Positions 4,934-56,942 of a DNA stretch of 64,000 nucleotides are shown here, one piece after another. Every line of letters starts with the position of its first letter. Position 1 is the stretch's first letter. Source of the DNA: Candidatus Omnitrophota bacterium (lineage in GTDB: Bacteria; Omnitrophota; Gorgyraeia; Zapsychrales; Fredricksoniimonadaceae); the NCBI GenBank assembly GCA_016201795.1, contig JACQCF010000020.1:5651-69650 (forward strand), given 5' to 3'. A program made the position numbers and the translations under genes. A model generated the notes under the pieces. That model was not told the DNA's origin, ran no database searches, and saw only the letters and a program-made list of their open reading frames with translations.

Positions 4934-4937
<4 letters not shown>

Positions 4938-5821
4938 AAGAACTGATTGGCGAATTTATCAATTACATGGCCATCGAGCGCGGGTTAGCTAAAAATACAC
5001 TGTTGGCTTACACCAGAGACCTTCAGAAATATACCGGCTATTTGTCAGAAAGAAAGATTCAAAACTCCGACGGTATAAGCCGGGATCATATCAGTGCCTT
5101 TATGATGGATTTAAAAAAGCACGGCATGTCCACGGCTTCTATTTGTCGGCACCTGGCGGCGGTAAAGATGTTTCATCGTTTTCTGGTGCGGGAAAATTTA
5201 GCCAAAGAAGACCCTACCACTCTGGTGGACACCCCTAAGCTTTTTAAGCGTGTGCCCGAGGTGCTCACTCAAAAAGAAGTGGAATCTATTTTGCAGGTGG
5301 CCCCAAAGGCCCGCTCGACGGGCAAACGTGACTATGTGATCCTGGAACTCTTTTATGCCTCAGGCATGCGGGTTTCGGAATTGGTGGATTTAAAGACCAC
5401 CAGTATCAATTTGGACGTCGGCTTTGTGCGTGCTTTAGGTAAAGGCAGCAAGGAAAGGATTATTCCCATCGGCAAAAAGGCCCGCGAGGCCCTGGGTTAT
5501 TATGGCGAAAAGATACGACCGAAATTGGCCAATGCTTCTTCAGGTGATATTTTATTTTTAAGCCGGTTGGGCAAAAAATTAAGCCGTCAGTCGGTGTGGA
5601 AGATGATTAAAGATCATGTACGTTTGGCGGGTATCAAGAAAAATATCAAACCGCACACCTTACGGCATACGTTTGCGACCCATCTTTTAGAGCACGGGGC
5701 GGATTTGCGCTCGGTTCAGGAAATGCTGGGCCACGCGGATATTTCCACGACGCAGATTTATACCCATGTCGACCGCGAACGCCTCAAAAGGGTGCATAAA
5801 CAATTCCATCCGCGCGGATAG
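4934..5821 (+). CDS. xerD: Tyrosine recombinase XerC/XerD family
   Basis: N-terminal SAM-like core-binding domain. C-terminal catalytic R...HxxR...Y signature (TLRHTFATHLL, GHADISTTQIYTHV). Confidence 0.85.
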
Positions 5822-5827
5822 ATTTTT

Positions 5828-6601
5828 ATGAGTGATTTATTATCCAGGTTAGATCGAAAATTATTGAAGATAGTCGCTGACAGCGGACGGTTAGCCGATC
5901 AGTTGGGCTTTCGTGCTTATTTAGTCGGCGGGCCGGTGAGGGATTTGCTGTTGCGGCGCTCCAACGCGGATTTGGATATTGTCGTCGAAGGCAGCGGAAT
6001 TCGTCTGGCGGAAAATTTTGCCGCCAAACACCGCGGGGCCAAGCTTGTACGTTATCCTGCCTTCAAAACAGCCACGGTTCATTTACCCGCGGGACGTCAG
6101 GTGGATTTTGCCACGGCGCGCAAGGAAACCTACGCCCGTGGCGGGGCTTTTCCCAAGGTTGAGTCTTCGGATATTGACGATGATCTTTTGCGGCGGGATT
6201 TCACGGTCAATGCCATGGCCATTGCCATCAATCCTGCGTCGTGGGGTCAGGTGGTTGATCCTTTCGGGGGCAGGAAGGATTTGCGTTCTAAGAAAATCCG
6301 TGTTCTGCATGAGAAAAGTTTTATCGATGACCCTACGCGGATTTTGCGGGCCGCACGTTTTAAGACTCGATTGGGCTTTATCATCGAAAGGGGAACGATG
6401 AAACTTTTAAAAGCGGCGGTGGCTGCCAAAGCCCTTGATACCATCAAACCGCAGAGGTATTTAAAAGAGTGCAATAAAATTCTTAAGGAAGAGAAGTCCC
6501 GGCTAGCCATTCAATGTCTTCAATCATGGAATGCTTGGAAGCCCCGCCTGAGCCCGCGGGGTAAAGGAGTTGCTTATGGTACGCATCGAAAAGATCAATG
6601 A
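5828..6601 (+). CDS. Poly(A) polymerase/CCA tRNA nucleotidyltransferase head-domain protein (short, 257 aa)
   Basis: GGPVRDLLL...DLDIVV...RRDFTVNAMA motifs of the class II nucleotidyltransferase head. Lacks the C-terminal body/tail of a full CCA enzyme. Confidence 0.65.
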   Translation: MSDLLSRLDRKLLKIVADSGRLADQLGFRAYLVGGPVRDLLLRRSNADLDIVVEGSGIRLAENFAAKHRGAKLVRYPAFKTATVHLPAGRQVDFATARKETYARGGAFPKVESSDIDDDLLRRDFTVNAMAIAINPASWGQVVDPFGGRKDLRSKKIRVLHEKSFIDDPTRILRAARFKTRLGFIIERGTMKLLKAAVAAKALDTIKPQRYLKECNKILKEEKSRLAIQCLQSWNAWKPRLSPRGKGVAYGTHRKDQ

Positions 6602-8007: not shown

Positions 8008-8673
8008 ATGAAAGAAGGAATTTTGATCATCAATAAACCAGGCGGCATTACCTCCCATGATGTGGTCTCTTTTGTCCGTCGTAAATTTAACATGCGCCGG
8101 GTTGGCCACGCGGGAACCCTGGATCCTTTAGCGACCGGCGTTCTTATCATCCTGCTGGGCCCATCGACGAAGTTGTTTGACCGTTTTGTGGCCTTTGATA
8201 AATCTTACCATGCCACTTTGCGGCTGGGGCTTAAAACCACCACCGCCGATATCATGGGTAAGACCATCGAACAAAAATCAGCCCAGGGCATTGATCAAAA
8301 AAAAGTGGAAGATGTTTTTAGAAAATTTATCGGTGAGATTGAGCAAGTGCCGCCCATGGTTTCCGCCCTCAAACATAAAGGCGAACGTTTATATAAAATC
8401 GCCTGGAGGGGCGAACAAGTCGAGCGCACTCCCCGCAAAGTGCGCATTGATGATCTGCATGTATTAAAATTTGCTTCTGGGCAGGTTGAATTTTTCATGT
8501 CCTGTTCCAAAGGAACTTATGTCCGTCAGCTGGCGGAGGATGTGGGTGAGGCTTTAGGCTGTGGGGCCTGTATTTCCCAAATTGAACGCACGCGCGTGGG
8601 GCAATTTGATATTAAAGACGCGGTCAGTTTAGAGAATCTCAATGAAAGTCATATACGGTCTTGGACCAATTAA
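8008..8673 (+). CDS. truB: tRNA pseudouridine-55 synthase
   Basis: GHAGTLDPLATGVL catalytic-Asp motif. N-terminal ILIINKPGGITSHDVV. Confidence 0.85.
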   Translation: MKEGILIINKPGGITSHDVVSFVRRKFNMRRVGHAGTLDPLATGVLIILLGPSTKLFDRFVAFDKSYHATLRLGLKTTTADIMGKTIEQKSAQGIDQKKVEDVFRKFIGEIEQVPPMVSALKHKGERLYKIAWRGEQVERTPRKVRIDDLHVLKFASGQVEFFMSCSKGTYVRQLAEDVGEALGCGACISQIERTRVGQFDIKDAVSLENLNESHIRSWTN

Positions 8674-9631
8674 TCCCCGCCAAAAATCGGCGGGATTAAC
8701 CCCGCTAGTCCCGCCAGGGCGGGACGTAGCGGTGGTTAAATTCAAAAAAACAGCGGCAGCGATTGGTATCTTCGACGGCGTTCATCGTGGCCATCAGCTG
8801 TTAATCAAGAGCATGGTCGCCCGGGCCAGGAAGCTCAAGGCCAGAGCCATGGTCATCACCTTTTTTCCTCATCCGGCCCACGTACTTCGTCCTGACGTAT
8901 TTTTGCCGTATCTGATGTCTCTGGAGCATCGTTTGCGGCTTTTTGAAGCGTTAGGGGTGGATGTGGTTTTAGTCATCCGTTTTAATAAACGTTTTGCCAA
9001 AATTGATCCGCATTATTTCATTGAAAAAATTTTGGTTGGACAGCTGGGGGTGAAGTCTATTTTTGTCGGCCAAGATTTTCGCTTCGGCAAAGACAGAAGC
9101 GGCGACATACGATTGTTCAAAAGGCTTTCTCAAACACTTGGCTATCGCATGCACGCGGTGAAGGCCTTAAAACAAGGCGGCCAGGTGATTAGCAGCAGCC
9201 GCTTGCGTCGCTTGATTCCGCAAGGGAAATTAAAGCAGGCCAAAGCATTGTTAGGTCGTCCGGTTTCTGTGTTAGGGCGTGTGGTGCGCGGGGCCTCAAG
9301 AGGTAAATCCTTAGGCTATCCGACGGCCAACGTGCATTATACCTGTAACGTTTTGCCGCCCTGCGGGGTTTATGCCGTGCGGGTGGTCTGGAAAAAGAAG
9401 CCTTTCTACGGTATGGCTAATTTAGGCCGAAGGCCTTCATTTAAGGAAAAAGGCGCTAAAGTGCATCTAGAAGTACACATTTTTGATTTTAACCGTACGC
9501 TCTACGGCCAGGAAATTTTGGTTGAATTCCTTCGCAAGATCCGCGATGAGAAATCTTTCGTTTCTAAAGAAGACCTTATCCGCCAGATTCAAAAAGACGA
9601 AAGGATTATTCGTGAATTACTGCATGTTTAG
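8642..9631 (+). CDS. ribF: Bifunctional riboflavin kinase/FMN adenylyltransferase
   Basis: IGIFDGVHRGHQ nucleotidyltransferase motif and C-terminal riboflavin kinase (GRVVRGASRGKSLGYPTANV). True start probably downstream of the truB stop, a GTG/ATG near 8720; not resolvable by eye. Confidence 0.8.
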   Translation: MKVIYGLGPINPRQKSAGLTPLVPPGRDVAVVKFKKTAAAIGIFDGVHRGHQLLIKSMVARARKLKARAMVITFFPHPAHVLRPDVFLPYLMSLEHRLRLFEALGVDVVLVIRFNKRFAKIDPHYFIEKILVGQLGVKSIFVGQDFRFGKDRSGDIRLFKRLSQTLGYRMHAVKALKQGGQVISSSRLRRLIPQGKLKQAKALLGRPVSVLGRVVRGASRGKSLGYPTANVHYTCNVLPPCGVYAVRVVWKKKPFYGMANLGRRPSFKEKGAKVHLEVHIFDFNRTLYGQEILVEFLRKIRDEKSFVSKEDLIRQIQKDERIIRELLHV

Positions 9632-9715
9632 TGTTTTTCGTGCACAATTCCAAATAAATTTTTATAAGAATTCATAACTATATTATTTCCAAATAGATAG
9701 GACTTTTCCATTCAC

Positions 9716-9743
9716 TTGACAAGTAAGCAGTATGTGGTATCTT
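9716..9743 (+). promoter_or_regulatory. Putative sigma70 promoter for the giant secreted protein gene
   Basis: TTGACA (9716-9721), 16-nt spacer, extended -10 TGgTATCTT (9735-9743). AT-rich upstream region contains two TTCCAAATA direct repeats (9648-9656, 9687-9695). Confidence 0.35.
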
Positions 9744-9807
9744 TTCTTATATGTCTTATAACCTGTCCCCAAAAAATCTAATGAACAAATCATGAGGGAG
9801 ATTAAGT

Positions 9808-12800
9808 ATGTTTTTTCATAACAGAATAGTTTGCCGCTTTAAACGTTGTATTTCTTCTCTAGCATTACTTTCCTTTCTTTTAGGCTCATGCGTTTTGCCT
9901 AACAGAGCTTCCGCGCAAATGTTCACTTATGGGAATCTTCCTGCCCCCGGCAGTATGCTCAACAGCAGCGCTCATTTTGTCCCGGTTATGATCAAGGGTT
10001 TGAAAATCTATGGGGATGATCCTTTAAAATTTGATTTTATCTTAGACAGCGGCAATGCTAAAGTTTCTGAAGCTGATTTTCAAAATGAGGGAATCAAACT
10101 GGCCAAATATTTCCTGGCCGGATTGACCGTTCCGGAAAAAGATCTGTGGGTCAACCTTTCTCCTTATGAAAAAGATCGCATTGTTCCTGAGTCCTTTGGT
10201 CAGACTCTTTTAGGCCGTGATTTGCTGGCTCAGGATTATATCCTCAAACAATTATCTTCTTCTTTAATTCATCCGAATAAAGATTTAGGGAAAACTTTTT
10301 GGAATCAAGTCTATACAAAAGCCAAACAACTCTATGGAACAACCAATATCCCGGTCAACACCTTTAATAAGGTATGGATTGTCCCGGATAAAGCCAATGT
10401 GTGGGAAAACAACGGCATGGCTTTTGTGACCTCCAGCCACCTGAAGGTGCTTTCTGAAGAGGATTACCTGTCTCTTTCTAAAAATATCGATAATCAAAAG
10501 TTTGGTATGAATCAAATCTCTCAGAATGATGTGAAGGCCATCAGTCGAGCCTCTGCGGATGTGGTGCGTCAATTGCTTTTGCCGGCCATTGAAAAAGAAG
10601 TCAATGAGGGAGAAAACTTCGCCAATTTACGCCAGATTTACAATGCCATGATTTTGGCGGTCTGGTATAAGCAGGCTTTAAAAGACAGTCTTTTGTCCAA
10701 GGTGTATGTGAATCAGAACAAAACCACCGGTGTAGATGATCAGGATAAGCAAAGCAAGCTCAAGATTTACCATCAGTACCTGGCGGCCTTCAAGAAAGGC
10801 GTGTTTAACTTTATCAAGGAAGAGCCAGACGAAAATAATACTGTAATACCCCGCAAGTATTTTTCCGGCGGGGCCGACTGGGCGATGATAGCGCAGGTTG
10901 AGCAAGTTGAGCGCGGACCTTTGACGGGTTTGTCTCCTACAGAGCAGGCGACAGTGGTAGGCAACGTTGGTCGGACAAGATTATTCACGTGGGGAGCCGG
11001 AGTTATCGGGGGCAAGCGGGTCGATGATGCGATGGTGGTCTCATCAGCTGAGGAGGCCGTTTATACACAACTTACTGAGACTCAAATTCCAGCGGTGTTT
11101 GGTGTGGATTTTGCACCGCATGGTTTCAAATCAGATCAATTTTGGGTCGCTGAGGTCGATCCTACCCAAGGAAAACTTATAAAACCATCTTCCATCAATC
11201 TTTTTAAGAATACTTCAACTTTGGTGGGAGTCAATGTGGCTATCTTGCAGGCTATAGCTGCAGCAGGCTATTCAGGGTTATTGGAACATATTCTTGGTAA
11301 GGTATCGAAAGATTTTGGTAAGGAAATTGATGCTGTAGCTGTTAAAGTCGGTAGGGAGTCGTTGGAAATATTGGCAAAAAAGTTGGATGTTGTCATTGTT
11401 GTAGGAGGTAATGAGGGGTCCTTTCGAGACGAGTCAAAAGATATGCCTCTTGGCTTGATTATGAATCCGACTGGTAAAAACGGAACGTTTATGTATTTTG
11501 GGGATTCAGTGGAAGTAACCAATGGGGTTAAACTTAAAATTGGAAAACCCGGAACTTATTCGATGGTGACTTTAGTACCTTTAATGATGCCTTCCACAGA
11601 TGGGTATCGCATTTCGTTGGCTGTTGACAAATTCAATCTCAACAAACCATTTCCTAAGATTGATCCGGTCATCACAAATGCCAATAGCTTACGTCATGTC
11701 CTAGAACAGTTGGCCGAATATATGGAGGCTGCAGATGCAGACGCTTTCATCAAACAAATGGTATCGCAATATATTGTTGTTACCCTTAATCGTCCTAAAC
11801 ATGATCAGCTAAAAGCTCAGGCCAAAGAGCTGGGGTTTTCCGTATTAGATCGGGAAGATGGAGATCCGCTTCTTTTTATTCGTGCCATGTTGGGAATTCC
11901 CGGTAAAGACGGTAAAAAATTACTGGCCATTTCAACTGGCGGTGCCAATGAACACATCATGTCTATGGTTTTTGCAGCATTGTATGGAAAAGCGTTGATG
12001 ACTACTACTTATGCTGCGACAAAAACATTGAAAGCGGTTGATAAAGAATATGCTCCAGGTGGTGCACAATCAGGACAAGGAAATTTGGAGAAAGCTAGAA
12101 ACTATTCTGCGGATGATCTGAAGAATTACAGTGACGTTAACACTGCCTTGGATAAAATAAGACATGCCGGATTCGATGTCCCGCAGGCTCCAGTTACTTC
12201 AGAGCAGTTAAAGGCGCAGCTCTTAACTCCGACTTCAGAAGAACTCAGTATGTTGAAAGAGGGCAAAATTCCTTCTTCGTTAGTTATTGCCTCTATTACA
12301 GGTTCTAATAAATTAGATTGGGGAGTATTACAGCCTTATATTCAGCCAGTGAGATGGGTGGAATCATCGGATGGTTCCGGTAAAGTGATTGTTAGTGGAT
12401 TTTTAATCAATAACGAAGGGAAAGTGAATTTCTTCAGAGCTAGCTTAAAAACAGATGACGTTATTAAATCACGTTATTCTATTGTAGCTCATAATGATCT
12501 TTTGCCTAATCCTTTAGTTGCTCAATATGAAAAAACACGAACAGCGTACATGACTATGCTGTATGCAGGCGAAATCGATGTGGATATTATTGGCAACCAT
12601 GTTAAAAATATCCACAGCCTTTTAAAGAATGAAGAGACTGCCCAAGACAGTTTGAAAACATTAGACGATGCTTTTGCTGCTGTACAAAGAGATATTAGGC
12701 TTGAAGCAGAAGTGGTACGTGCTGTTCGTGAAGTGGAGAGATATATTCTCGGTAACCCTAGTGTGCAAATGGAAGATGGGACCATGCATGCCGTGGTACA

Positions 12801-14283
12801 ACCTGCTAGTGCAGCGATGACGACTAATGTGCCACCAGAGCAGGAACGATTAAGGAGGATTGTGGGGAGTATTGCCGCACCGACGAAAGGTTTTTTGGCG
12901 GCGGATGGGACTACAGATACTATTGAAAAAGAAATAGTAAGAGCGATGGGTTTAAAGACACTGGATGAATTAAGGGCTCAGTTTAATGAAGGTCAGCGTT
13001 TTGCTTTGCGTGAGCAGGCGCGCAATGTGACTTTTACCTCGGCAGCATTGCCGTATACGGTGGGTGGTGTCATTGTTTATGATGAAGCGGCTAAATATAA
13101 GGATGCTCAAGGTCGGAATTTGATCGATGAGCACGTCATAAAAAGAGGAGTAGGAGTTATCCACAAAGCAGATCGTGGTCTAAAGCCCGATGAAACCAGT
13201 CCTTTGCCTAGCAGGGAAGGTCTTGATAGAGAGAAGCTTCCCAAAGACGCAGGGCTGGATGATTTAAACACTATTTTAGATGTATTCCCTAATTCAGTTG
13301 CGACCAAGTTCAGGGTAACATTTACTATCGATGGAGATAGCTTGCCCACTCAGGCAAATATAGAAGCGAATGCGAAAGCTTTAGCCCGACATGCGTATGA
13401 TACACAAAAGTCCGGTAGAGCGCCAACAATCGAGCCCGAAATATTGATTAACGGAGACCACAGTATCGATAAGAGTAATGAAGTCATGATTCGTGTACTC
13501 AAGGGGATTTTTAAGGCATTAAAGGAAAAAGGGGTATGGCTGCCCGGAGTTGTCCTTAAGACAAGTATGGTTTTATCAGGGAAAACCGCACAGAATCGAG
13601 CTGATTACAAAGAAGTGGCAAGACAGACGGTCGATGTGCTTAAAAAGACGGTTCCTGCTGAATTGGGAGCGATTGTATTTTTATCTGGTGGGCAGTCAAC
13701 AGAAGAGGCATTGGGGAATTTAAATGCCATTGCCCAGGAAGCCAGAACACAGAAAGCTCCATGGCGGTTAACGTATTCTTATTCTCGTGCCCTCAAACAG
13801 CCAGCATTAAAGGTATGGGCTGGGAAGGCAGAAAATATTCCTGCTGCCCAGAAGGTGTTTAATCAGACTCTTTATAGAGCGCAGGCAGCTAGCTTAGGAG
13901 TGTTAGAAGAATTTGATGCGTTGATGGCCAAGATTGGTATCGATGCTCTTTTGGCAGGACAAGATGAGTATAACAAAATGTTAGCGGCCAATGCTCAAGC
14001 TTATAATTTGGGGGAGTTGGTGAAGAATTTTGATGCGGCACAGGTAACTTCAGCTACAGCTATCCAACGCCAGGGTGGTATCGACCTGCGTCCTGATTTG
14101 TTTGACCTGCAAATCAAACGTGATGACAAAGGTATACCTTTACCTGTCAGTCAACAGCCCATTGGCAGCATGAAGATTCAAGGTTTTATGCCTGTAACCA
14201 TTGATTTTAAACCAGTTAATTTACCTTTATTATTGGGTGCCGCTAATAATCAGGAGGATAAGCAGCAGCTAACATTTAAATAA
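9808..14283 (+). CDS. Giant (1491 aa) signal-peptide protein with C-terminal class I fructose-bisphosphate aldolase domain
   Basis: Sec-type signal (RFKRCISSLALLSFLLGSCVLPNRASA|Q). Residues ~1040-1390 align motif-by-motif with eukaryotic-type class I FBA: KGFLAADGTTDTI (ILAADESTG), IEPEILINGDHSI (EPEILPDGDH), VVLKTSMV (Schiff-base Lys of LLKPNMV), IVFLSGGQSTEEALGNLNAI (FLSGGQSEEEA), WRLTYSYSRALKQPALKVWAGKAEN ([25 protein letters not shown]). The N-terminal ~1000 aa has no family I recognise. Confidence 0.8.
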   Translation: MFFHNRIVCRFKRCISSLALLSFLLGSCVLPNRASAQMFTYGNLPAPGSMLNSSAHFVPVMIKGLKIYGDDPLKFDFILDSGNAKVSEADFQNEGIKLAKYFLAGLTVPEKDLWVNLSPYEKDRIVPESFGQTLLGRDLLAQDYILKQLSSSLIHPNKDLGKTFWNQVYTKAKQLYGTTNIPVNTFNKVWIVPDKANVWENNGMAFVTSSHLKVLSEEDYLSLSKNIDNQKFGMNQISQNDVKAISRASADVVRQLLLPAIEKEVNEGENFANLRQIYNAMILAVWYKQALKDSLLSKVYVNQNKTTGVDDQDKQSKLKIYHQYLAAFKKGVFNFIKEEPDENNTVIPRKYFSGGADWAMIAQVEQVERGPLTGLSPTEQATVVGNVGRTRLFTWGAGVIGGKRVDDAMVVSSAEEAVYTQLTETQIPAVFGVDFAPHGFKSDQFWVAEVDPTQGKLIKPSSINLFKNTSTLVGVNVAILQAIAAAGYSGLLEHILGKVSKDFGKEIDAVAVKVGRESLEILAKKLDVVIVVGGNEGSFRDESKDMPLGLIMNPTGKNGTFMYFGDSVEVTNGVKLKIGKPGTYSMVTLVPLMMPSTDGYRISLAVDKFNLNKPFPKIDPVITNANSLRHVLEQLAEYMEAADADAFIKQMVSQYIVVTLNRPKHDQLKAQAKELGFSVLDREDGDPLLFIRAMLGIPGKDGKKLLAISTGGANEHIMSMVFAALYGKALMTTTYAATKTLKAVDKEYAPGGAQSGQGNLEKARNYSADDLKNYSDVNTALDKIRHAGFDVPQAPVTSEQLKAQLLTPTSEELSMLKEGKIPSSLVIASITGSNKLDWGVLQPYIQPVRWVESSDGSGKVIVSGFLINNEGKVNFFRASLKTDDVIKSRYSIVAHNDLLPNPLVAQYEKTRTAYMTMLYAGEIDVDIIGNHVKNIHSLLKNEETAQDSLKTLDDAFAAVQRDIRLEAEVVRAVREVERYILGNPSVQMEDGTMHAVVQPASAAMTTNVPPEQERLRRIVGSIAAPTKGFLAADGTTDTIEKEIVRAMGLKTLDELRAQFNEGQRFALREQARNVTFTSAALPYTVGGVIVYDEAAKYKDAQGRNLIDEHVIKRGVGVIHKADRGLKPDETSPLPSREGLDREKLPKDAGLDDLNTILDVFPNSVATKFRVTFTIDGDSLPTQANIEANAKALARHAYDTQKSGRAPTIEPEILINGDHSIDKSNEVMIRVLKGIFKALKEKGVWLPGVVLKTSMVLSGKTAQNRADYKEVARQTVDVLKKTVPAELGAIVFLSGGQSTEEALGNLNAIAQEARTQKAPWRLTYSYSRALKQPALKVWAGKAENIPAAQKVFNQTLYRAQAASLGVLEEFDALMAKIGIDALLAGQDEYNKMLAANAQAYNLGELVKNFDAAQVTSATAIQRQGGIDLRPDLFDLQIKRDDKGIPLPVSQQPIGSMKIQGFMPVTIDFKPVNLPLLLGAANNQEDKQQLTFK

Positions 14284-14325
14284 GTTTTAATCATAATTTA
14301 GTAAAAAACTCTAAAAGCCTTCACT

Positions 14326-14358
14326 GTCCCGCCTCGGCGGGATAGCGAGGGTTTTTTA
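14326..14358 (+). terminator. Rho-independent terminator after the giant protein gene
   Basis: GTCCCGCC-TC-GGCGGGAT hairpin, followed after a short GC-rich spacer (10 nt) by a T6 tract (14352-14357). Confidence 0.5.
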
Positions 14359-14375
14359 TTTACAAATTTTGTTTA

Positions 14376-14404
14376 TTGACAATGGAGGGGTGTTTGCTTA
14401 TACT
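14376..14404 (+). promoter_or_regulatory. Sigma70 promoter of the dcw operon (PmraZ)
   Basis: Consensus TTGACA (14376-14381), 17-nt spacer, TATACT (14399-14404). Confidence 0.6.
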
Positions 14405-14412
14405 GCCTTCAA

Positions 14413-14437
14413 GTGGAGCAAAGTGGAGCAGGGTGGT
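14413..14437 (+). promoter_or_regulatory. Putative MraZ operator (three GTGG[A/T] direct repeats at 10-bp periodicity)
   Basis: GTGGAgcaaaGTGGAgcaggGTGGT directly downstream of the -10 element. Same architecture as the TGGGN triple direct repeats bound by E. coli MraZ in its own promoter. Confidence 0.5.
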
Positions 14438-14444
14438 TTAAACT

Positions 14445-31082: not shown

Positions 31083-31144
31083 ACTTTACTTTAAAATAAG
31101 TTTTGGCTATAGTTTTTCACAGTGTAGGAAAGAATTTTCTTGTC

Positions 31145-32245
31145 ATGTCCACCGAAGTTGTCTTACATAATACACCTCTTCTCGAGGAACACATCGCTCT
31201 TGGCGCCAAGATGGTTGGCTTTGGCGGATGGAACATGCCTTTGCAGTATGAGGGGATCCTTACCGAATGGGACTATAACCGCAGGACCTGTTCACTTTTT
31301 GACTGCTCGCACATGGGCGAGTTTATCATCAAGGGCGATGCCGTCGAAAGCGGTTTGGATGGTATCGTCACTCAGCGCCTCACGGATATACCCCCTAAAA
31401 CCTGTCGTTACGGGGCAATGCTCAACGCGCAGGGCGGTGTCATTGATGATCTGATTGTCTATCGCAAAGCTCCCCAGGAATGGATGATTGTCGTCAATGC
31501 CGCTAATAGTGAGAAGAATGCTAAACATTTTAAGGATCATTTAACCTCGAAGGCGGTTTTTCAGGACATTTCTTTTGAGACAGCTAAACTGGATCTTCAA
31601 GGACCATTATCGCGGGATATTTTAAAGACTTTAGTACCGGGTATCGCGAAATTGGAGTACTACACTTTTGATGAATTCACTTTGCTTAAGGAAAAATGTT
31701 TGATCAGCCGCACCGGCTATACCGGCGAGTTGGGCTATGAAATTTATTATCCCTGGGAAAAGTCAAAAGAATTGTGGCAGGCAATTTTAAAAAATGATAA
31801 AGTCAAACCCACTGGGTTAGGCGTGCGTGATGTTTTGCGTATTGAAATGTGCTACAGCCTTTACGGCCACGAATTGGATGAAACCATTTCGCCTCTGGAG
31901 GTCGGTCTGGATAAGTTCATTGACTTTGACAAAGATTTTATCGGCAAAGAAGTTCTTTTAAAACAAAAGGCTCAAGGGTCGCGCCGAGCGATCGGCTGTT
32001 TCACCTCTGAATCCCGACGGAGCCCGCGCGCCGGACACAAAATTTTTAATGAAGCAGGCCGCATCGTCGGCGAGGTGACCAGCGGCACGTTTTCACCGGC
32101 GTTGCAGTCAGGCATCGGCCTTGGATTTGTAGAAAAACCAACTAATACCATCGGGCAAAAGCTCTTTTTCGGGGATGAAAAAACAAAAGCCGCAGCGGCC
32201 GTAGTCAAAAGGCCTTTTTACAAGAGCGGTTCTTTAAAGCATTGA
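31145..32245 (+). CDS. gcvT: Glycine cleavage system T protein (aminomethyltransferase)
   Basis: MSTEVVLHNTPLLEEHIALGAKMVGFGGWNMPLQY canonical GcvT N-terminus. Start taken at internal Met 31145. Confidence 0.9.
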   Translation: MSTEVVLHNTPLLEEHIALGAKMVGFGGWNMPLQYEGILTEWDYNRRTCSLFDCSHMGEFIIKGDAVESGLDGIVTQRLTDIPPKTCRYGAMLNAQGGVIDDLIVYRKAPQEWMIVVNAANSEKNAKHFKDHLTSKAVFQDISFETAKLDLQGPLSRDILKTLVPGIAKLEYYTFDEFTLLKEKCLISRTGYTGELGYEIYYPWEKSKELWQAILKNDKVKPTGLGVRDVLRIEMCYSLYGHELDETISPLEVGLDKFIDFDKDFIGKEVLLKQKAQGSRRAIGCFTSESRRSPRAGHKIFNEAGRIVGEVTSGTFSPALQSGIGLGFVEKPTNTIGQKLFFGDEKTKAAAAVVKRPFYKSGSLKH

Positions 32246-32255
32246 GGAATAATTT

Positions 32256-32645
32256 ATGGAGATCATGGATCATTATCTGTACACCAAAGAGCATGAATGG
32301 ATTAACATCGAAGACAATATCGGCACCATTGGCATTACCGACTATGCCCAGAGCGCTTTAGGCGATATTACTTACGTGGAATTTCCGCAGCAAGATCAGG
32401 AGGTGGATCAATTCGAGCAGTTTGTTTCCGTTGAGTCGGTGAAGGCCGCCTCAGATATTTTCTCTCCTATGTCCGGCAAAGTCATAGAAGTCAACCAGAA
32501 GCTTGAGGACAATCCGGCTTTGGTCAACAAAGACTGCTATATTAAAGGCTGGATTGCCAAGATTGAAATCAAAGATATGGATGAGTCGAACAATTTGATG
32601 TCCGCCGAGGAATACCGCAATTATTTAGAATCTCTCGAGCACTAA
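32256..32645 (+). CDS. gcvH: Glycine cleavage system H protein
   Basis: 129 aa lipoyl domain; lipoyl-Lys motif SVESVKAASD. Confidence 0.9.
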   Translation: MEIMDHYLYTKEHEWINIEDNIGTIGITDYAQSALGDITYVEFPQQDQEVDQFEQFVSVESVKAASDIFSPMSGKVIEVNQKLEDNPALVNKDCYIKGWIAKIEIKDMDESNNLMSAEEYRNYLESLEH

Positions 32646-32685
32646 TGGTCCGGCATTTAGCCTTACTACAAGAGAAAGTTTTGTT

Positions 32686-34050
32686 TTGAATCCCTATATC
32701 ACTAATACAGCATCAGAAGTCAAGGATATGCTGGGCGTCATCGGGGTAAAGTCCATCGATGATCTTTTCGTAGATATCAAACCACAGCATGTCCCTAAGT
32801 CTTTTCATCTGCCTTCTGGTCTTTCGGAATACGAAGTCCTGCGCCGCCTGACGGAGCTTTCTTTAAAAAACAACGTGTATTTAACCCCTTTTATAGGGGG
32901 CGGCTATTATGATCATTATGTGCCGGCAGCGGTGGGGATGCTCATTTCCCGGGGAGAATTTTACACGGCCTACACACCGTATCAGCCCGAATGCGCCCAA
33001 GGGACATTACAAGGGTTGTTTGAATTCCAAAGCCACATGTGCGCTTTGACGGGCATGGAAGTTGCTAACGCCTCGCTTTATGACGGCGGAACCGCGCTGT
33101 ACGAAGCCATGATGATGGCCATTCGTATCACAGGCAGAGATAAAATCATCATGGATGGCGGGGTCAGTCCCATTTACCGTAAAATTTTAAGAACGTACAC
33201 GCATCATTTGCATTATCAATTTGAAGAAACTCCCGTTGTGCACGGCAGCGAATCAGTCCCTGCAGGGGGCCAAACCAGCCGCCAGGAGATTGAAAAACGT
33301 TTGGATAAAAATACCGCTGCGGTGATTTTGCAAAACCCTAACTTTTTCGGCGCCATTGATGACTTTACGGACATCATTGAAAAAGCGCACGCCGTCGGGG
33401 CGCTGGTCATTGTCAGCGTTTATCCGATTTCCCTGGGGCTTCTAAAAACGCCGGGGGATATGGATGCGGATATTGTCACGGGAGAGGGCCAGTCGCTGGG
33501 GCTGCCTTTGAATTTCGGTGGGCCGTATTTAGGTTTTATGTGCGTCAAAAAACAATACGTGCGCAAAATGCCGGGCCGTATCGTCGGAGAAACCGTGGAT
33601 GCACAAGGCCGTCGCTGTTTTGTCAATATCCTGCAGGCGCGGGAGCAACATATCCGACGGGAAAAGGCCACCTCCAACATTTGTACCAACGTATCTTTGT
33701 GCGCTTTGCAGGCGGCCATTTTTATGTCCATCGTTGGCAAAGGTGGTTTAAAAGAAATGGCGCAATTGAATCTGGACAAAGCCGAATACGCAAAACAATG
33801 TCTAGAGAAAGTCAAAGGGGTCCAGGTCCAACGGTCCTGGCCGACATTTAATGAATTCACCATTTGTTTACCGCAGGATGCCTCCCAAGTGGTGGCGCGC
33901 ATGATGGACAAGGGATTTGCCGCGGGTTTTGACCTGGGGCGTTATTACAAGGGTATGGAAAAATATTTGTTGGTGGCGGTCACCGAGAAACGTACCAAAG
34001 AAGAAATCGACCGTTACGCCAAAGCATTGGCGGAAGTGTTATGCAATTAA
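32686..34050 (+). CDS. gcvPA: Glycine dehydrogenase (decarboxylating) subunit 1
   Basis: GcvP N-terminal half (YTPYQPECAQGTLQ motif). Followed by overlapping gcvPB. Confidence 0.9.
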   Translation: MNPYITNTASEVKDMLGVIGVKSIDDLFVDIKPQHVPKSFHLPSGLSEYEVLRRLTELSLKNNVYLTPFIGGGYYDHYVPAAVGMLISRGEFYTAYTPYQPECAQGTLQGLFEFQSHMCALTGMEVANASLYDGGTALYEAMMMAIRITGRDKIIMDGGVSPIYRKILRTYTHHLHYQFEETPVVHGSESVPAGGQTSRQEIEKRLDKNTAAVILQNPNFFGAIDDFTDIIEKAHAVGALVIVSVYPISLGLLKTPGDMDADIVTGEGQSLGLPLNFGGPYLGFMCVKKQYVRKMPGRIVGETVDAQGRRCFVNILQAREQHIRREKATSNICTNVSLCALQAAIFMSIVGKGGLKEMAQLNLDKAEYAKQCLEKVKGVQVQRSWPTFNEFTICLPQDASQVVARMMDKGFAAGFDLGRYYKGMEKYLLVAVTEKRTKEEIDRYAKALAEVLCN

Positions 34051-35492
34051 TTTTCGAAAAATCAGTTAAAGGCCGTCGGGGTTTTCGTTTTGGAACTTGT
34101 GATGTTCCCGTCAAAGCGCAGGTGCCTGTCAAGTACGCGCGCAAAGACGATGCCCCGCTGCCGGAAGTCTCGGAACTGGATGCGGTGCGTCATTACACGC
34201 ATTTATCCCAGCAGAATTTTTCTATCGACACACATTTCTATCCGTTGGGTTCCTGCACCATGAAATACAATCCGAAATTCACCGAAACCATTGCGCGTCT
34301 GGCGGGTTTTACAGATTTGCATCCTCTTTTGCCGCAATTAGCCTCGGGGGAGAAGTTAACGCAGGGGGCTTTGCAGGTTCTTTACGAGCTCGAGCAATGG
34401 ATGTGTGAAATAACAGGTTTTTGTGCCTTTACCTTACAGCCTTTAGCCGGCGCGCACGGAGAGTTAACCGGCATTATGCTCATGGCCGCTTATCATAAAG
34501 CCAAGGGCAATACCAAGAAAAAATATGTCATTATTCCTGATTCCGCCCACGGCACCAATCCTGCCAGCGCGGCGGTTGCCGGCTATGAGACTATTTCGAT
34601 ACCTTCTAACAAAGACGGCGGCATGGATTTAGAGGCGCTTAAAAGCGCCATCAGCAACGAGGTGGCAGGTTTGATGATGACCGTGCCCTCGACCTATGGC
34701 GTTTTTGAGTCGAACATTGAGGAGATTGCCAGGCTCATCCATTCGGTGGATGGCATTATGTATTACGACGGGGCGAATCTTAATGCGGTTTTGGGCCGTT
34801 TCCGTCCCGGCGATGTGGGCTTTGATGTGATGCACATCAATACGCATAAAACTTTTACCACTCCTCACGGCGGCGGCGGGCCAGGGGCTGGGCCGGTGGG
34901 GGTTAATGCCAAGCTTGAAAAATTTTTGCCGATTTCGCGGGTCATTAAAAAACCTGACGGTACTTATGCGCTTAATTATGATTATCCCGATTCCATCGGC
35001 TACATCGCTTCTTTTTACGGCAATTTCGCCTTGTTAGTCAGAGCTTACGCGTACATGCTGATGTTAGGCCAAGAGGGGCTGCAACAGACGACAGATCATG
35101 CGGTGTTAAACGCCAATTACATTATGACCAAACTTAAAAAACATTATAAACTTTGTTTTGATCGCCTGTGCATGCATGAGACTGTTTTCTGTGCCGCTTT
35201 CCAGGCCCAGAGGGGAGTGCGCGCCATTGATGTTGCCAAATTTTTGATCGATCAAAAAATCCATCCGCCAACCGTGTATTTTCCTATCAGCGTTCCTGAG
35301 GCTATTATGATTGAGCCGACGGAGACGGAATCCAAACAAACCATGGATCATTTTATCCAGAAGATGATTGAGGCTGATGAGTTGTCCAAAACCAATCCTT
35401 TGGCGTTCAAAGAATTTCCTAAGACAATGCCTATTTCCCGACCGGATGAAGTCAAAGCCGCGCGGGATGTGAAAACTTCATATTTTAGATGA
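34041..35492 (+). CDS. gcvPB: Glycine dehydrogenase (decarboxylating) subunit 2
   Basis: PLP-binding region HINTHKTFTTPHGGGGPG (Lys of HxNxHKTF). Confidence 0.9.
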   Translation: MQLIFEKSVKGRRGFRFGTCDVPVKAQVPVKYARKDDAPLPEVSELDAVRHYTHLSQQNFSIDTHFYPLGSCTMKYNPKFTETIARLAGFTDLHPLLPQLASGEKLTQGALQVLYELEQWMCEITGFCAFTLQPLAGAHGELTGIMLMAAYHKAKGNTKKKYVIIPDSAHGTNPASAAVAGYETISIPSNKDGGMDLEALKSAISNEVAGLMMTVPSTYGVFESNIEEIARLIHSVDGIMYYDGANLNAVLGRFRPGDVGFDVMHINTHKTFTTPHGGGGPGAGPVGVNAKLEKFLPISRVIKKPDGTYALNYDYPDSIGYIASFYGNFALLVRAYAYMLMLGQEGLQQTTDHAVLNANYIMTKLKKHYKLCFDRLCMHETVFCAAFQAQRGVRAIDVAKFLIDQKIHPPTVYFPISVPEAIMIEPTETESKQTMDHFIQKMIEADELSKTNPLAFKEFPKTMPISRPDEVKAARDVKTSYFR

Positions 35493-38444: not shown

Positions 38445-39023
38445 ATGTCTAAAGAGACTGTTGAAGAAAAGTGGAAAGTGCTTCAAAAATCCGCAGCCAC
38501 CCCTGTTTCCTTGAAGCAAGAATCATCTGCCCACAAATTTTTTAGTTTTTTTTCTATTGCCGAGCTCAATAGAATTTTATGGATCGCGACGGCGGTTTGC
38601 GCTGTTATTTTAATCGTTGAACTGTATTGGGGTTTTTTTCTGCTGAATAAGAAGATGGACTTTTCTGAGGAAGTCAAAACAAGTTCTCATCAACAAGAAA
38701 CCAATCTTCCTCAGGTTAAGGATGTTAAATATTACATCGACAGCCTCGGCAATCGCAATATTTTTAAACCTTATGACATTGAGCTTGGCAAAGCCGCGGT
38801 AGGAGAGCCGAATTTAGCCAGGCTTTTGTCCAAATATAAACTGGTGGGCGTGGCCTGGCTCGATCTTCCGGAATCGGCTTCGATCATGGTGGAAGATACC
38901 CGCACCAAAGCGACGCATTTTCTAAAAACCGGCGAACAATTAGAAGGCGTAACGGTCAAAACCATCTATACGGATAGAGTGGTCTTTAGTTACGAGAATG
39001 AGGAAATAACCATTAAGCTATGA
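38445..39023 (+). CDS. PilP/GspC-like secretin-associated protein (N-terminal TM plus periplasmic beta-domain)
   Basis: Single TM (ILWIATAVCAVILIVELYWGFFLL). C-terminal domain with the YKLVGV...GEQLEGVTVKTIYTDRVVF pattern typical of PilP/GspC HR domains. Stop overlaps the secretin start. Confidence 0.4.
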   Translation: MSKETVEEKWKVLQKSAATPVSLKQESSAHKFFSFFSIAELNRILWIATAVCAVILIVELYWGFFLLNKKMDFSEEVKTSSHQQETNLPQVKDVKYYIDSLGNRNIFKPYDIELGKAAVGEPNLARLLSKYKLVGVAWLDLPESASIMVEDTRTKATHFLKTGEQLEGVTVKTIYTDRVVFSYENEEITIKL

Positions 39024-40666
39024 TCAAACGCATTTTTAAACCCAGATTGATTTGGTTGGTAGGGGCGTTTGTGATCATGCCGATGATTTTTTTCAAGCTT
39101 TACGCTTGGTCTCAGGAGGCGGCCTCTGCCGTGGCTCAGGCAAATGCCGGCGTCGAGCTTCCCAAGCCGATCATTTTAACCGAGCCCAAGGAGCCTCTGG
39201 AAGACCGCATGATACGTAAAATCACGCTGGATGTGCGTGATATGAACGTCGTCGACGTCATTAAATTCCTGGCCCAAAAAGGTGAATTTAACGTGGTGAT
39301 TTCGGCTCCTGTAGACGGCCGTACCACCGTGCTTTTGCATGCGGTCGCCATTAAAGACGCGCTGGATATCATTGCGGTATCAAATAAATTGGCCTATCAC
39401 GTTCAAAATGACATTGTGCAGGTGATGACCGCTGCCGAATATGAAGCGATGTATGGTAAACAATTCAGCGATAAGACCGAGGTGAGTATTATTCATTTGC
39501 AATACTCCAAGCCCAGTTATGTGCTGGCTGCTTTGGATAATATGAAAAGCAATATTGGTAAGATCATTATCGATGAAGACACCGGCACCGTAGTTTTGGT
39601 CGATACCCCGCCGTCTATTATGGTCATGAAGAAAGCTATTGAACAGATTGAACGTCCTCTAGATACGCTCGTCTACGATTTAAAATATGCCAAGGCGGAT
39701 GTGGTGGCGGAAAAATTGCGCTCCCGTATTGATGCCAAGGCGGTGGGTTCCATCACGGCGGATGAGCGCTCCAATCAAATCTTGGTGCGCGTGTTCCCCG
39801 GCCGTCACGATGAGGTAGAAAAAGTGATCCGCAGTCTGGATGAGCCGACCAGAGAGGTTTTGATTGAGGCTCGCATATTGCAGGTGATTTTAAAACCCAA
39901 TTATGACGCGGGTATTGATTGGTCAAGCCAGATTTTTAATAATGGCAAGAACAAATTTTCTTTTAAGAATATCGATTTGAATGAATCAGGCCTTGCGGCC
40001 GCTAGTGATAATTTGGCATCGACTTTCAGCAGAATTGCTGTTGGTAATGTCAACACTCAGGATTTCATGATGGCGTTGCGTTCTTTACAGCAGGTCAGCG
40101 ACACCAAAATTCTCTCCAGCCCTCAAATTTTGGTGACCAATAACGACGAAGCCAAAATTCATATCGGAGACACGGTTCCTTACATCATTTCCACCACCAA
40201 TGGTACCGGAGATAATGCGATCAAAAGCGAGGATGTGCGTTTCATTGACGTTGGTTTGAAATTGAATGTCACTCCTACCATTAACGACGACGGCATGGTG
40301 ACAATGCATCTGCGTCCGGAAATTTCTTCCGTGGTCGGACGCATTACCTCTCAAGCGGGCGGTATCCCTCAGGTGAACAAAACGGAAGTGGAGACTGCGG
40401 TCATGGTACATGATGGTATGACGATTATCTTAGCAGGCTTACGCAAGGAAGATAAATCGCATACGAAAAAAGGTTTCCCTGTGCTCATGGACCTGCCTTA
40501 TCTGGGTAATTTCTTTTCGCGCACCTCTGATAGTATTACATCGACGGAAATCGTAATTTTAATCACCCCGCACATTGTTAAGGGTACGGATGATTACACG
40601 AAAGTGACCGGCACGATCAAACCGCCCAAGAAGTATGAGGAGAATCTTCAATCATCGCCACCGTAG
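39020..40666 (+). CDS. gspD: Type II secretion/type IV pilus secretin (GspD/PilQ family)
   Basis: N-terminal TM/signal, N0/N1-like domains, C-terminal secretin domain (KILSSPQILVTNNDEAKIHIGDTVPY...PVLMDLPYLGNFFSRTS...IVILITPHIV). Confidence 0.85.
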   Translation: MIKRIFKPRLIWLVGAFVIMPMIFFKLYAWSQEAASAVAQANAGVELPKPIILTEPKEPLEDRMIRKITLDVRDMNVVDVIKFLAQKGEFNVVISAPVDGRTTVLLHAVAIKDALDIIAVSNKLAYHVQNDIVQVMTAAEYEAMYGKQFSDKTEVSIIHLQYSKPSYVLAALDNMKSNIGKIIIDEDTGTVVLVDTPPSIMVMKKAIEQIERPLDTLVYDLKYAKADVVAEKLRSRIDAKAVGSITADERSNQILVRVFPGRHDEVEKVIRSLDEPTREVLIEARILQVILKPNYDAGIDWSSQIFNNGKNKFSFKNIDLNESGLAAASDNLASTFSRIAVGNVNTQDFMMALRSLQQVSDTKILSSPQILVTNNDEAKIHIGDTVPYIISTTNGTGDNAIKSEDVRFIDVGLKLNVTPTINDDGMVTMHLRPEISSVVGRITSQAGGIPQVNKTEVETAVMVHDGMTIILAGLRKEDKSHTKKGFPVLMDLPYLGNFFSRTSDSITSTEIVILITPHIVKGTDDYTKVTGTIKPPKKYEENLQSSPP

Positions 40667-51721: not shown

Positions 51722-54026
<2,305 letters not shown>

Positions 54027-55736: not shown

Positions 55737-56942
55737 ATGCCTTCTTATTTGTACAAAGCTAAAAAAAATTTTGCTGAGACCGTCACCGGCCGCATGGAGG
55801 CCCAGACCCAGGAAGAAGCTCTGGATTTGATTCATCAGCTGGGGCTGGTGCCGGTATCATTGGAAGAAGTAGCTGGAGGTATTTTAGTCAGAGACATACG
55901 TCCTCGTCGCATTAGCCTCAAAGAAATTTATTATTTTACTAAACAATTGGGAGGCCTTATTAAATCCGGCGTAGCTTTGCTTAAAAGCCTTGAGGTTATT
56001 AGCACCCAGACTAAAAATGTTTATTTGGCCAAAGTCATCAGCGATATCGCCCTGGCGGTCAAAAGCGGCCGTTCGTTTTCTCTGACTTTAAGCGATTATC
56101 CCGAAATTTTTTCTCCTTTATATGTGGCCATGGTTCAGGCGGGGGAAGAAATTGGGCATTTGCGCGGTGTGCTTTTGGATGTAGCTGAATTTCAAAAGAA
56201 ACAGCAGGAATTTTCTTCTAAAGTAACCGGCGCCCTGGTTTATCCGCTACTCATGCTGGCGATAGGTCTTTTAACAGTCTCCTTTATCCTTACCTTTGTT
56301 TTGCCTAAAATCGCCGTCATCTACGCAGATACTTCCCAGAGCCTGCCATGGCCGACTTTGGTGATTACGCAAGTCAGCTATTTTTTTCAAACTTTTTGGA
56401 TTTTTTTGGTGATGGTCGTCGTCATCGCTACGATCATCTTTAACCGCTGGTACCAGAGGCCGTCGGCAAAAATCATCATTGGTCAATGGTTTTTGCATAT
56501 GCCTTTTTTGAGAGAGTTGGTTGTCAAGACGGATTTAGTCCGTTTTACCCGCACGACGCATTTGCTTCTTAACAGCGGTTTGACGTTGGTGCGCTCGATG
56601 GAAGTGGCGCTTCCAACCATCACTAATCCATTGTTAAGAGAAGATTTATCCAACTGCGTGGGCGGTTTAAAATCGGGAGAAAGCTTGGGGAGTTGTCTGA
56701 AGCAGTCTTTACTGGTACCGGATATGATCCGGCAAATGCTCTCTGTAGCGGAAGAAAGTGGATCTTTGCAAGAGTCCTTGGGGGACATTGCCGAAGCTTA
56801 TGAAGCAGAGATCAATGAAACCATCCGTTTGATCACCACTTTGCTGGAGCCGGCTATGATCCTGACGGTGGGGCTGGTGGTGGGGTTTATCGTTTTTGCC
56901 ATGCTGCTGCCGATTTTTTCCATGGATATCCTAGCCCGTTAG
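55737..56942 (+). CDS. gspF: Type II secretion/type IV pilus inner-membrane platform protein (GspF/PilC family)
   Basis: 401 aa, two GspF-type repeats with 3 TM helices. Adjacent to gspE. Confidence 0.8.
   Translation: MPSYLYKAKKNFAETVTGRMEAQTQEEALDLIHQLGLVPVSLEEVAGGILVRDIRPRRISLKEIYYFTKQLGGLIKSGVALLKSLEVISTQTKNVYLAKVISDIALAVKSGRSFSLTLSDYPEIFSPLYVAMVQAGEEIGHLRGVLLDVAEFQKKQQEFSSKVTGALVYPLLMLAIGLLTVSFILTFVLPKIAVIYADTSQSLPWPTLVITQVSYFFQTFWIFLVMVVVIATIIFNRWYQRPSAKIIIGQWFLHMPFLRELVVKTDLVRFTRTTHLLLNSGLTLVRSMEVALPTITNPLLREDLSNCVGGLKSGESLGSCLKQSLLVPDMIRQMLSVAEESGSLQESLGDIAEAYEAEINETIRLITTLLEPAMILTVGLVVGFIVFAMLLPIFSMDILAR

Follow-up and report, generated by a model that had tools for sequence, protein, structure and literature searches.

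The stretch analysed here, hereafter the window, comprises 64,000 nucleotides of Candidatus Omnitrophota bacterium contig JACQCF010000020.1 (assembly GCA_016201795.1, positions 5,651 to 69,650), and the gene under study occupies positions 9808–14283 of it as an uninterrupted open reading frame (ORF) with an ATG start, on the plus strand, where all of its features described below also lie. Its 1491-residue product is identical to GenBank entry MBI3602270.1, annotated as 'MAG: fructose-bisphosphate aldolase [Candidatus Omnitrophica bacterium]' (MAG, metagenome-assembled genome), a name that covers one of the protein's five parts. In order, these are a signal peptide (aa 1–36, 9808–9915) with a predicted signal peptidase I (SPase I) cleavage site, ASA/Q; an N-module of ~320 residues (aa 40–356, from LPAPGSM to PRKYFSGG, 9925–10875), conserved throughout the protein family described below and of no known fold; a divergent domain of GlpX type, i.e. 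like class II fructose-1,6-bisphosphatase (FBPase), with insertions (aa 431–1005, 11098–12822); a class I fructose-bisphosphate aldolase (FBA) domain (aa 1015–1369, 12850–13914) with its Schiff-base lysine at K1251; and a C-module of ~55 residues (aa 1423–1477, GGIDL...NLPLLLG, 14074–14238), followed by a 14-aa tail. A linker with the D-x-A-M motifs DWAM (aa 357) and DDAM (aa 406) precedes the GlpX-like domain (10876–11097), and a second one (aa 1370–1422, 13915–14073), ending in DAAQ (aa 1409), precedes the C-module. We hold this domain composition to be very probably correct. The architecture is as unusual as a preliminary description made from the sequence had stated, but the aldolase is not, as stated there, the last ~350 residues, since 122 residues follow it, the C-module included; nor are the ~1000 residues before it unannotatable, as they hold the GlpX-like domain and an N-module shared by hundreds of Omnitrophota proteins.

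The aldolase is the only part of the protein that clearly matches a solved structure by sequence (best match 3mmt_A, E = 1.2e-50). Pfam family PF00274 covers aa 1015–1369 (E = 5.6e-68; 229.7 bits against a cut-off of 22.2), and all motifs quoted in the preliminary description are present, confirming a genuine class I domain. Residues were mapped against rabbit aldolase A, which is 36% identical to the domain. All nine catalytic and substrate-binding residues checked are intact, as had been proposed: D1033, K1120, K1167, R1169, E1209, E1211, K1251, S1293 and R1327, equivalent to rabbit D33, K107, K146, R148, E187, E189, K229 (the Schiff base), S271 and R303; E34 and R42 of the rabbit enzyme are replaced by Gly and Glu. 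The same nine residues are kept in 14 out of 14 aldolase copies carried by 11 large Omnitrophota proteins, although these copies are only 30–63% identical to that of the window protein, which in turn shares 60–63% identity with the aldolase domains of its sister proteins and 37–42% with free-standing bacterial enzymes. Such strict conservation despite divergence argues for catalysis and for a long evolution inside fusion proteins, and, together with the distance from free-standing enzymes, against a recent chimera or a pseudo-enzyme; we infer that the domain would be an active aldolase. With class I aldolases such as 3MMT of Bartonella henselae and rabbit muscle aldolase A it therefore shares, by sequence, a fold family and the catalytic and phosphate-binding residues checked, the difference being that it is embedded at aa 1015–1369 of a 1491-aa signal-peptide protein.

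The middle region is more remote from its solved relatives. In searches against the PDB, GlpX chains were the sole matches to the single sequence (weak, E = 0.1–0.5) and the top matches to a profile built from five sequences (also weak, E = 0.27). The motifs of the domain are GGNEG (533), GDSVEVTNG (565), NRPKH (661), EDGDP (683) and STGGANEH (709). The central stretch RPxH...DGD...GGAxE aligns to the solved GlpX chains, in which RPRH, DGD and GGAPE correspond to RPKH, DGD and GGANE of the window protein, while two further correspondences were matched by eye only: GDSVEVTNG with the GlpX DPIEGT (DxxExT), and GGNEG..RDE with GEGE..DE. In an alignment of five relatives DxxExT, RPxH, DGD and GGxxE do not vary, apart from a Lys in the window protein where RPRH has its second Arg; the roles of these metal-binding and catalytic residues we take to be those known from work on E. 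coli GlpX. The region also differs from GlpX in size (~575 against ~330 residues), owing to large insertions. A full HMMER scan of 1.84 billion representative proteins with the five-sequence profile (A4) retrieved 23 relatives, none of them a plain GlpX of ~330 aa. Almost all are parts of larger proteins, which reach 6205 aa and, one 67-aa fragment aside, go down to 432–521 aa. A homologue search with the middle region by itself had given just two proteins, owing to its word pre-filter. When ten of these relatives were compared with Pfam, eight (P0243, P0247, P0248, P0251, P0256, P0257, P0260 and P0261; A4 E-values 1e-100 to 7.5e-5) reached or exceeded the GlpX gathering score with 27.4–48.2 bits, jointly covering profile positions 26–293. 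The middle domain is therefore, judged by its sequence relatives, a divergent, insertion-rich branch of the GlpX family and a fructose-1,6-bisphosphatase-like domain. Among the A4 relatives, P0249 (6205 aa) and P0250 (5831 aa) carry the GlpX-like domain and lack the N- and C-modules.

A GlpX-type domain next to an aldolase makes the cargo between the end modules a two-step aldolase and phosphatase unit, which would run from triose phosphates through fructose 1,6-bisphosphate (FBP) to fructose 6-phosphate. The same pairing is found in P0247, P0248 and P0251, which fuse a class I aldolase and a GlpX-like domain in either order behind signal-peptide-like N-termini and have no end modules, so that the combination has more than one context, whether by separate origin or by retention. 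(P0262 is grouped with P0251 among these proteins; in the set, which also takes in P0249 and P0250, the N-termini after the signal show a different recurring motif, e.g. LEIPPELGTVEE.) In archaea and deep-branching bacteria, the irreversible gluconeogenic step is carried out by a single-domain FBP aldolase/phosphatase (PF01950, FBPase class V), which performs in one polypeptide the net reaction that the cargo studied here would perform. The two are not homologous, and Pfam found no match to PF01950 in the window protein, where two domains are fused, whereas the known enzyme remodels one active site. The proteins with the closest N-modules carry related cargo: an aldolase in P0006 (N-module 87% identical), a remote GlpX-like domain in P0009 (64%), and in P0008 (70%) the non-homologous FBPase_3 (PF01950) aldolase/phosphatase itself.

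The end modules identify a protein family. Nearly throughout the best 120 database clusters from the homologue search, BLASTP aligned aa ~13–355 of the window protein to the match's own N-terminus and aa ~1423–1477 to its own C-terminal end (34–66% identity); over the first ~355 residues most of these clusters were 47–62% identical and three reached 64–87%. The matches are proteins of 0.8–2.6 kaa (thousand amino acids), and every named source is Omnitrophica or Omnitrophota. The N-module consensus runs LNLPxPGTM ... WVNLSPYE ... NTFNKVWIVP ... EKEVNEG ... PRKYFSGG with ~55 invariant columns, and that of the C-module reads GGIDLNPxLLDLQIKRDGxGVPLPxxQQPIxxMxIxGFxPVIINxxPxxNLPxLLG; a hidden Markov model (HMM) of the latter detected exactly one copy in 119 of the 120 matches, near the C-terminus with a median of 30 residues after it. 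Neither module is covered by any Pfam or NCBIfam model. P0008 carries the N-module and no detectable C-module, as a complete 1125-aa gene on a 3999-bp contig. In pattern scans, at least 599 stretches were found in one genome per GTDB species (586 confirmed by tblastn) and at least 600 in JGI metagenome contigs (563 confirmed). We kept 79 genome loci from the GTDB-species scan, 52 of them labelled Omnitrophota or Omnitrophica, 24 'uncultured Planctomycetales' (third-party assemblies), and one each Elusimicrobia, Bacteroidales and 'bacterium'; in their complete ORFs the N-module nearly always came with a terminal C-module, and several end-module paralogues occurred per MAG. Three ORFs of ~400–480 aa at L026, L047 and L056 consist of the N-module alone, some of which may be frameshifted fragments. 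Same-strand, head-to-tail arrays of end-module genes were frequent (L010, L015, L019, L039, L047, L049, L051, L054, L057, L058, L059, L062, L064 and L079), with up to three in a row at L047, and Pfam was uninformative on the genes in these arrays; the window gene is single, and no paralogue of either module lies elsewhere in the window.

Between the modules, precomputed Pfam matches reveal a wide range of cargo. Sugar-phosphate enzymes include hexokinase, PGI, PFK, class I and class II aldolases, GlpX, FBPase_3, TPI, GAPDH and PGK, as well as phosphoglycerate mutase, enolase, PPDK and PGM; UDP-glucose pyrophosphorylase (UGPase), starch synthase, isocitrate lyase and malate synthase represent glycogen and glyoxylate metabolism; and other members carry REC, GGDEF, sigma-54 AAA+, HTH, HEAT, radical SAM, UbiB or PP2C domains. 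The family is large, modular and nearly confined to Omnitrophota, and appears to be undescribed. In the searchable literature we found no description of the end modules, and preprints on giant Omnitrophota proteins alone note similar cargo. Members of the family contain D-x-A-M about ten times more often than expected (for DAAM, 27 occurrences against 1.7 expected), in those linkers that follow the N-module, separate cargo domains or precede the C-module; beside the two sites of its first linker and DAAQ, the window protein has SAAM at aa ~1001. The motif may mark a junction or a processing site.

Although the cargo varies, the N-module does not follow it. Almost any two members share ~60% pairwise identity over the aligned core positions of the N-module, a different measure from the BLASTP identities given above, regardless of cargo. 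Subfamilies of the N-module tracking cargo were considered and rejected (median identity 0.61 within a cargo class and 0.60 between classes). Many of the invariant residues are polar and there is an invariant polar patch, which fits a common binding or catalytic role. Of the N-terminal region whose structure the preliminary description had proposed to predict, aa 1–420 were modelled with AlphaFold2 from a 60-sequence alignment, yielding a confident model (mean predicted local distance difference test score (pLDDT) 79.8, predicted template modelling score (pTM) 0.78) in which the signal helix is followed by a mixed fold of long helices plus two beta-hairpins. A Foldseek search of the full PDB returned nothing below E = 0.14, with template modelling scores (TM) of ~0.1; the N-module is therefore without a recognisable relative among solved structures and, on the basis of this model, is apparently a new fold. 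A likeness to ClyA-type pore toxins among the top matches was rejected as non-significant (TM ~0.1, E ≥ 0.14).

The N-terminus reads MFFHNRIVCRFKRC-ISSLALLSFLLGSCVL-PNRASA/QM (the slash marks the predicted cleavage), with a basic n-region, a 16-aa hydrophobic stretch that is the sole hydrophobic segment of the 1491-aa protein, a helix breaker and small residues at −3 and −1; similar signal peptides are present on other exported proteins of the window. Features were scored in 113 full-length family members, 112 of which have a predicted cleavage site. An n-region of ~15 residues with a median net charge of +3 is followed by an uncharged hydrophobic stretch of 16 residues (interquartile range 16–16), a Pro-rich break and a conserved cleavage site [SVATG]-x-A/Q, with Ala at −1 in 82 and Gln at +1 in 64 of the 112; the 25 residues past the predicted cleavage carry no net charge, and 96% of the 113 obey the positive-inside rule. 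These n/h/c features are the pattern of Sec export with SPase I cleavage, in agreement with the Sec-type signal first described, and we consider it likely that end-module proteins are exported. Paralogues differ unusually little in the sequence and the length of their signal peptide (e.g. ...YRILSAFIAFTFIFS..PP..YAQ; hydrophobic stretch of 16 aa in most), a feature reminiscent of the extended, conserved signal peptides found on very large secreted proteins. Tat export was rejected: the twin-arginine motif [ST]RRx-hydrophobic-hydrophobic occurs in none of the 113 members, and any RR in 17. So was a lipoprotein, since Cys28 of the LGSC sequence at aa 25–28 is not conserved beyond the closest relatives. 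At the other end of the protein, aa 1370–1491 contain no hydrophobic segment and gave no Pfam or NCBIfam match, whether to a type IX secretion system (T9SS) C-terminal domain (CTD), LPXTG, PEP-CTERM or an autotransporter barrel.

Comparison with a positional orthologue revealed how cargo and modules are related at the DNA level. P0006 (locus L081) lies directly downstream of ribF, as does the window gene, and its N-module is 87% identical to that of the window protein, compared with 36% for the aldolase. By blastn, the two loci are 80–86% identical over ribF and the N-module (8437–10992), show no detectable similarity across the cargo cassette (10993–14073), and become similar again, at 83%, over the C-module and terminator (14074–14326), exactly at the first GGIDL codon, followed by 94% identity over the mraZ promoter region (14364–14441); the flanks of the cassette are thus 80–94% identical. 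GC content at third codon positions (GC3) is 0.35–0.39 in the cargo, 0.47 in the N-module and 0.51–0.61 in ribF and mraZ. In the middle region of P0006 Pfam found no match, and the HMM of the middle domain gave a weak hit of 4.5 bits. Evidently, the gene has kept its place on the chromosome and its conserved end modules while the cargo between them was exchanged. At L081 an inserted, toxin-antitoxin-like DUF433/DUF5615 gene pair (5513–6027) separates the end-module gene from the conserved mraZ promoter region.

The gene was originally credited with its own promoter, terminator and regulatory leader. For the first two there are sequence counterparts: a sigma-70-like site at 9716–9743 (TTGACA, a 16-nt spacer with the extended −10 TG, TATCTT; 10 of 12 consensus matches), which is promoter-like by its consensus match only, and a terminator-like hairpin at 14318–14357 with a CCCGC-CTCG-GCGGG core and an extended imperfect stem before TTTTTT, read directly from the sequence after a pattern scan had missed it because of the stem mismatches. 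A ribosome-binding site, GAGGGAG (9794–9800), also read from the sequence, precedes the ATG by 7 nt. The leader did not fare as well, in that an Rfam scan of it found no known regulatory RNA; a riboswitch or other known RNA was rejected on that result. The end-module gene is plausibly monocistronic. The hairpin sits just before a strong promoter-like site upstream of mraZ (14376–14404; TTGACA-17-TATACT, 11 of 12, near-consensus), and the 78 nt around that site, at 94% identity to the orthologous locus, are the best-conserved stretch of the comparison.

The gene is located between truB-ribF and the mraZ-dcw cell-division cluster, and these flanks make its context a housekeeping one. Further genes of ordinary chromosomal type in the window are an XerC/D-type tyrosine recombinase (4934–5821) and a glycine-cleavage set with the T protein and two P-protein subunits (31103–35492). 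A set resembling type II secretion systems and type IV pili (T2SS/T4P-like), namely secretin, GspE/PilB ATPase, GspF/PilC and a PilM/PilN fusion, is encoded at 39020–40666, 54029–55732, 55737–56942 and 59565–61007, interspersed with ATP-synthase alpha/beta-like genes (48620–50158, 52602–54026); it is a possible outer-membrane route for folded proteins exported by Sec, without linkage to the gene studied here. In the same region, two tandem signal-peptide proteins with FGE-sulfatase (SUMF1-like) domains (41486–43060 and 43023–44681) are followed by signal-peptide ORFs of 868 and 435 aa (44691–47297, 47300–48607) with no Pfam match.

How can a housekeeping locus with a signal peptide, two conserved end modules and interchangeable metabolic cargo be explained? 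The reading that we favour, and to which we give a somewhat better than even chance, is that of an exported gluconeogenic aldolase and phosphatase unit equipped with a lineage-specific addressing or assembly tag; of the options offered in the preliminary description, an exported enzyme or a new multidomain enzyme comes closest to it. In this scenario the signal peptide would send the chain through Sec and be cleaved after Ala36, so that most of the protein would come to lie on the far side of the inner membrane, carrying two handles shared by the whole family. The N- and C-modules would serve as a common address or assembly handle, gathering the aldolase-phosphatase unit, in the cell envelope or outside it, with sister proteins that bear the remaining sugar-phosphate enzymes; the common site could be the envelope, the surface, or the outside after secretion. 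Cargo would be exchanged as a cassette between the end modules. That the end modules have a common addressing or assembly role at all is, in our view, evenly balanced. A bolder version, which we put forward only tentatively and regard as doubtful, is that signal peptide, N-module and C-module constitute an unrecognised Omnitrophota addressing or assembly system that would bring a virtually complete set of glycolytic, gluconeogenic and glycogen enzymes, together with regulatory domains, to a single site outside the cytoplasm, e.g. in the periplasm, in a surface coat or at a prey-contact zone.

Several results weigh against the favoured reading. Much of the family's cargo (hexokinase, PFK, PGK, GAPDH, PPDK, REC, GGDEF, sigma-54 AAA+, HTH and radical SAM) requires ATP, GTP, NAD or DNA, and such domains are unexpected outside the cytoplasm. 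Neither end module has a structural or sequence relative in Pfam, NCBIfam or PDB that points to a function, and a full-length AlphaFold2 model of the short member P0050, in which signal peptide and N-module are followed by hexokinase and C-module, was too poor (pLDDT 52.7) to judge docking of the two modules. On the side of the cargo, PF03320 (GlpX) matches the window protein over aa 648–724 with 19 bits against a cut-off of 27, spanning profile positions 148–220 of 307; the same stretch is likewise sub-threshold in its relatives P0003, P0004 and P0005, TIGR00330 is below its cut-off (15.7 bits against 259), and the N- and C-terminal halves of the GlpX-like region gave no Pfam match when run alone. 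The class I FBA equivalog of NCBIfam (NF033379) scores 246.8 bits against a cut-off of 250, 3 short. Finally, cassette replacement was seen against a single positional orthologue with known cargo; among the matches listed from the metagenome scan there is one further close relative, and it ends before its cargo.

The cofactor requirement invites two other accounts, to each of which we give a small but real chance. If the N-terminal helix were an uncleaved anchor, or were not translocated, modules and cargo could be tethered at the membrane's cytoplasmic side as a glycolytic and gluconeogenic metabolon. This would suit a family in which the great majority of cargo is of a cytoplasmic kind that needs nucleotides or cofactors; hydrophobic stretches of 16 aa are among the longer ones in signal peptides, and the authors of a giant-protein preprint themselves consider that the localisation of the same domains may have been mis-called. 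However, the charge bias in 96% of members orients the N-terminus inwards and the body outwards, the conservation of small residues at −3 and −1 and of the Gln after them makes sense only if SPase I cleaves on the outer face, and with a single hydrophobic segment the chain cannot return across the membrane. Alternatively, the folded protein might, once exported by Sec, leave the cell altogether, e.g. through a T2SS/T4P-like system, and act on or in prey or a host as a secreted effector or predation tool that processes or rewires their sugar phosphates, with the end modules as its secretion or translocation signal. According to the literature, there are ultrasmall predators and epibionts among the Omnitrophota, giant proteins of the phylum that contain the same enzyme domains have a predicted extracellular location and lie near T2SS/T4P-like loci, the window itself encodes secretin, GspE, GspF and PilM/N, and prey cytoplasm would supply the cofactors for nucleotide-dependent cargo. 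Such a role sits poorly with the housekeeping context of the gene between truB-ribF and mraZ-dcw, with secretion genes 25–45 kb away, and with the finding of no significant similarity to a known secretion signal, toxin-translocation or pore-forming domain; a full set of central-metabolism enzymes would also be an odd effector repertoire.

Aldolases moonlight as adhesins in other bacteria, and such a surface-displayed adhesin was among the roles first suggested for the window protein. We found nothing that supports it, and the broader idea that the aldolase and GlpX-like domains are non-catalytic binding or structural modules of a surface coat, an adhesin or a pseudo-enzyme seems very improbable: while the HEAT-repeat cargo of sister proteins suggests scaffolding, retention of the nine aldolase residues in every one of the 14 embedded copies despite deep divergence argues for catalysis, the GlpX motifs are invariant among the five relatives bar the single Arg-to-Lys change, and the closest N-modules include one followed by the analogous, non-homologous FBPase_3. 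Least credible of all, and effectively refuted, is an artefact of assembly or gene calling that joined separate genes, a concern raised at the outset. The source is a metagenome-assembled genome and GC3 of the cargo falls below that of the flanks, but the reading frame is uninterrupted over 4.5 kb, hundreds of independent assemblies contain the order N-module, cargo, C-module, as does the syntenic orthologue, and fusions of aldolase and GlpX-like domains recur on other contigs.

The favoured reading, an exported enzyme unit with a shared tag, has parallels in several known systems and coincides with none of them. Among these are the giant Omnitrophota proteins of 10–147 kaa named 'Archaeovorins', in which TPI, PGI, FBPase, PGM and FBA domains are predicted to be extracellular, posing the same cofactor paradox (bioRxiv 10.1101/2023.11.21.568195, 10.64898/2026.06.07.730766). 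Phylum, predicted extracytoplasmic location and cargo (TPI, PGI, FBPase, PGM, FBA, PPDK, HEAT, GT5, REC and radical SAM) are shared, whereas the window protein has 1.5 kaa, a single signal peptide and no further transmembrane helices, compared with many in the giants, and the N- and C-modules are not described in those preprints. Dockerin-bearing cellulosome enzymes and T9SS cargo (signal peptide plus C-terminal sorting domain) are varied proteins that have in common a signal peptide and one compact module for addressing or assembly, and the end-module family would work in a similar way. The window protein has no similarity, by Pfam and NCBIfam, to dockerin, T9SS CTD, LPXTG, PEP-CTERM or autotransporter domains, its family has two end modules rather than one, and the cargo belongs to central metabolism rather than polysaccharide degradation. 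Kinetoplastid glycosomes realise the same concept, pathway compartmentation by a common targeting tag (PTS1/PTS2) on most glycolytic enzymes. They differ in relying on eukaryotic peroxisomal import of folded proteins by very short signals without homology to the end modules, and compartmentation in Omnitrophota is what we infer.

That sugar-metabolism enzyme domains occur inside giant, apparently extracytoplasmic Omnitrophota proteins has been noted before. We found no counterpart in Pfam, NCBIfam, PDB or the searchable literature for the end-module family of 0.8–2.6 kaa, the fold of the N-module, the unit of GlpX-like domain and aldolase, or cassette replacement, and there is a substantial chance that the end-module system is categorically new. 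The family ties the giant proteins of the phylum to a tractable class of 1–2.5 kaa, and the N-module, well conserved and apparently a new fold, is a compact handle for finding all of its members. The fusion of aldolase and GlpX-like domain represents an independent solution to an FBP aldolase/phosphatase in one polypeptide. Even if these proteins are cytoplasmic, an 'FBA', 'PGK' or 'GAPDH' hit counted in reconstructing Omnitrophota metabolism may be one of these tagged multidomain proteins. If they are truly exported, ultrasmall and partly predatory bacteria would run or stage sugar-phosphate chemistry outside the cytoplasm, contradicting the textbook view of bacterial glycolysis as cytosolic and bearing on how Omnitrophota feed on other cells. 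And if the end modules are a true addressing system, they would provide a bacterial counterpart of the glycosome or the cellulosome for central metabolism, in which cargo is swapped by the cassette.

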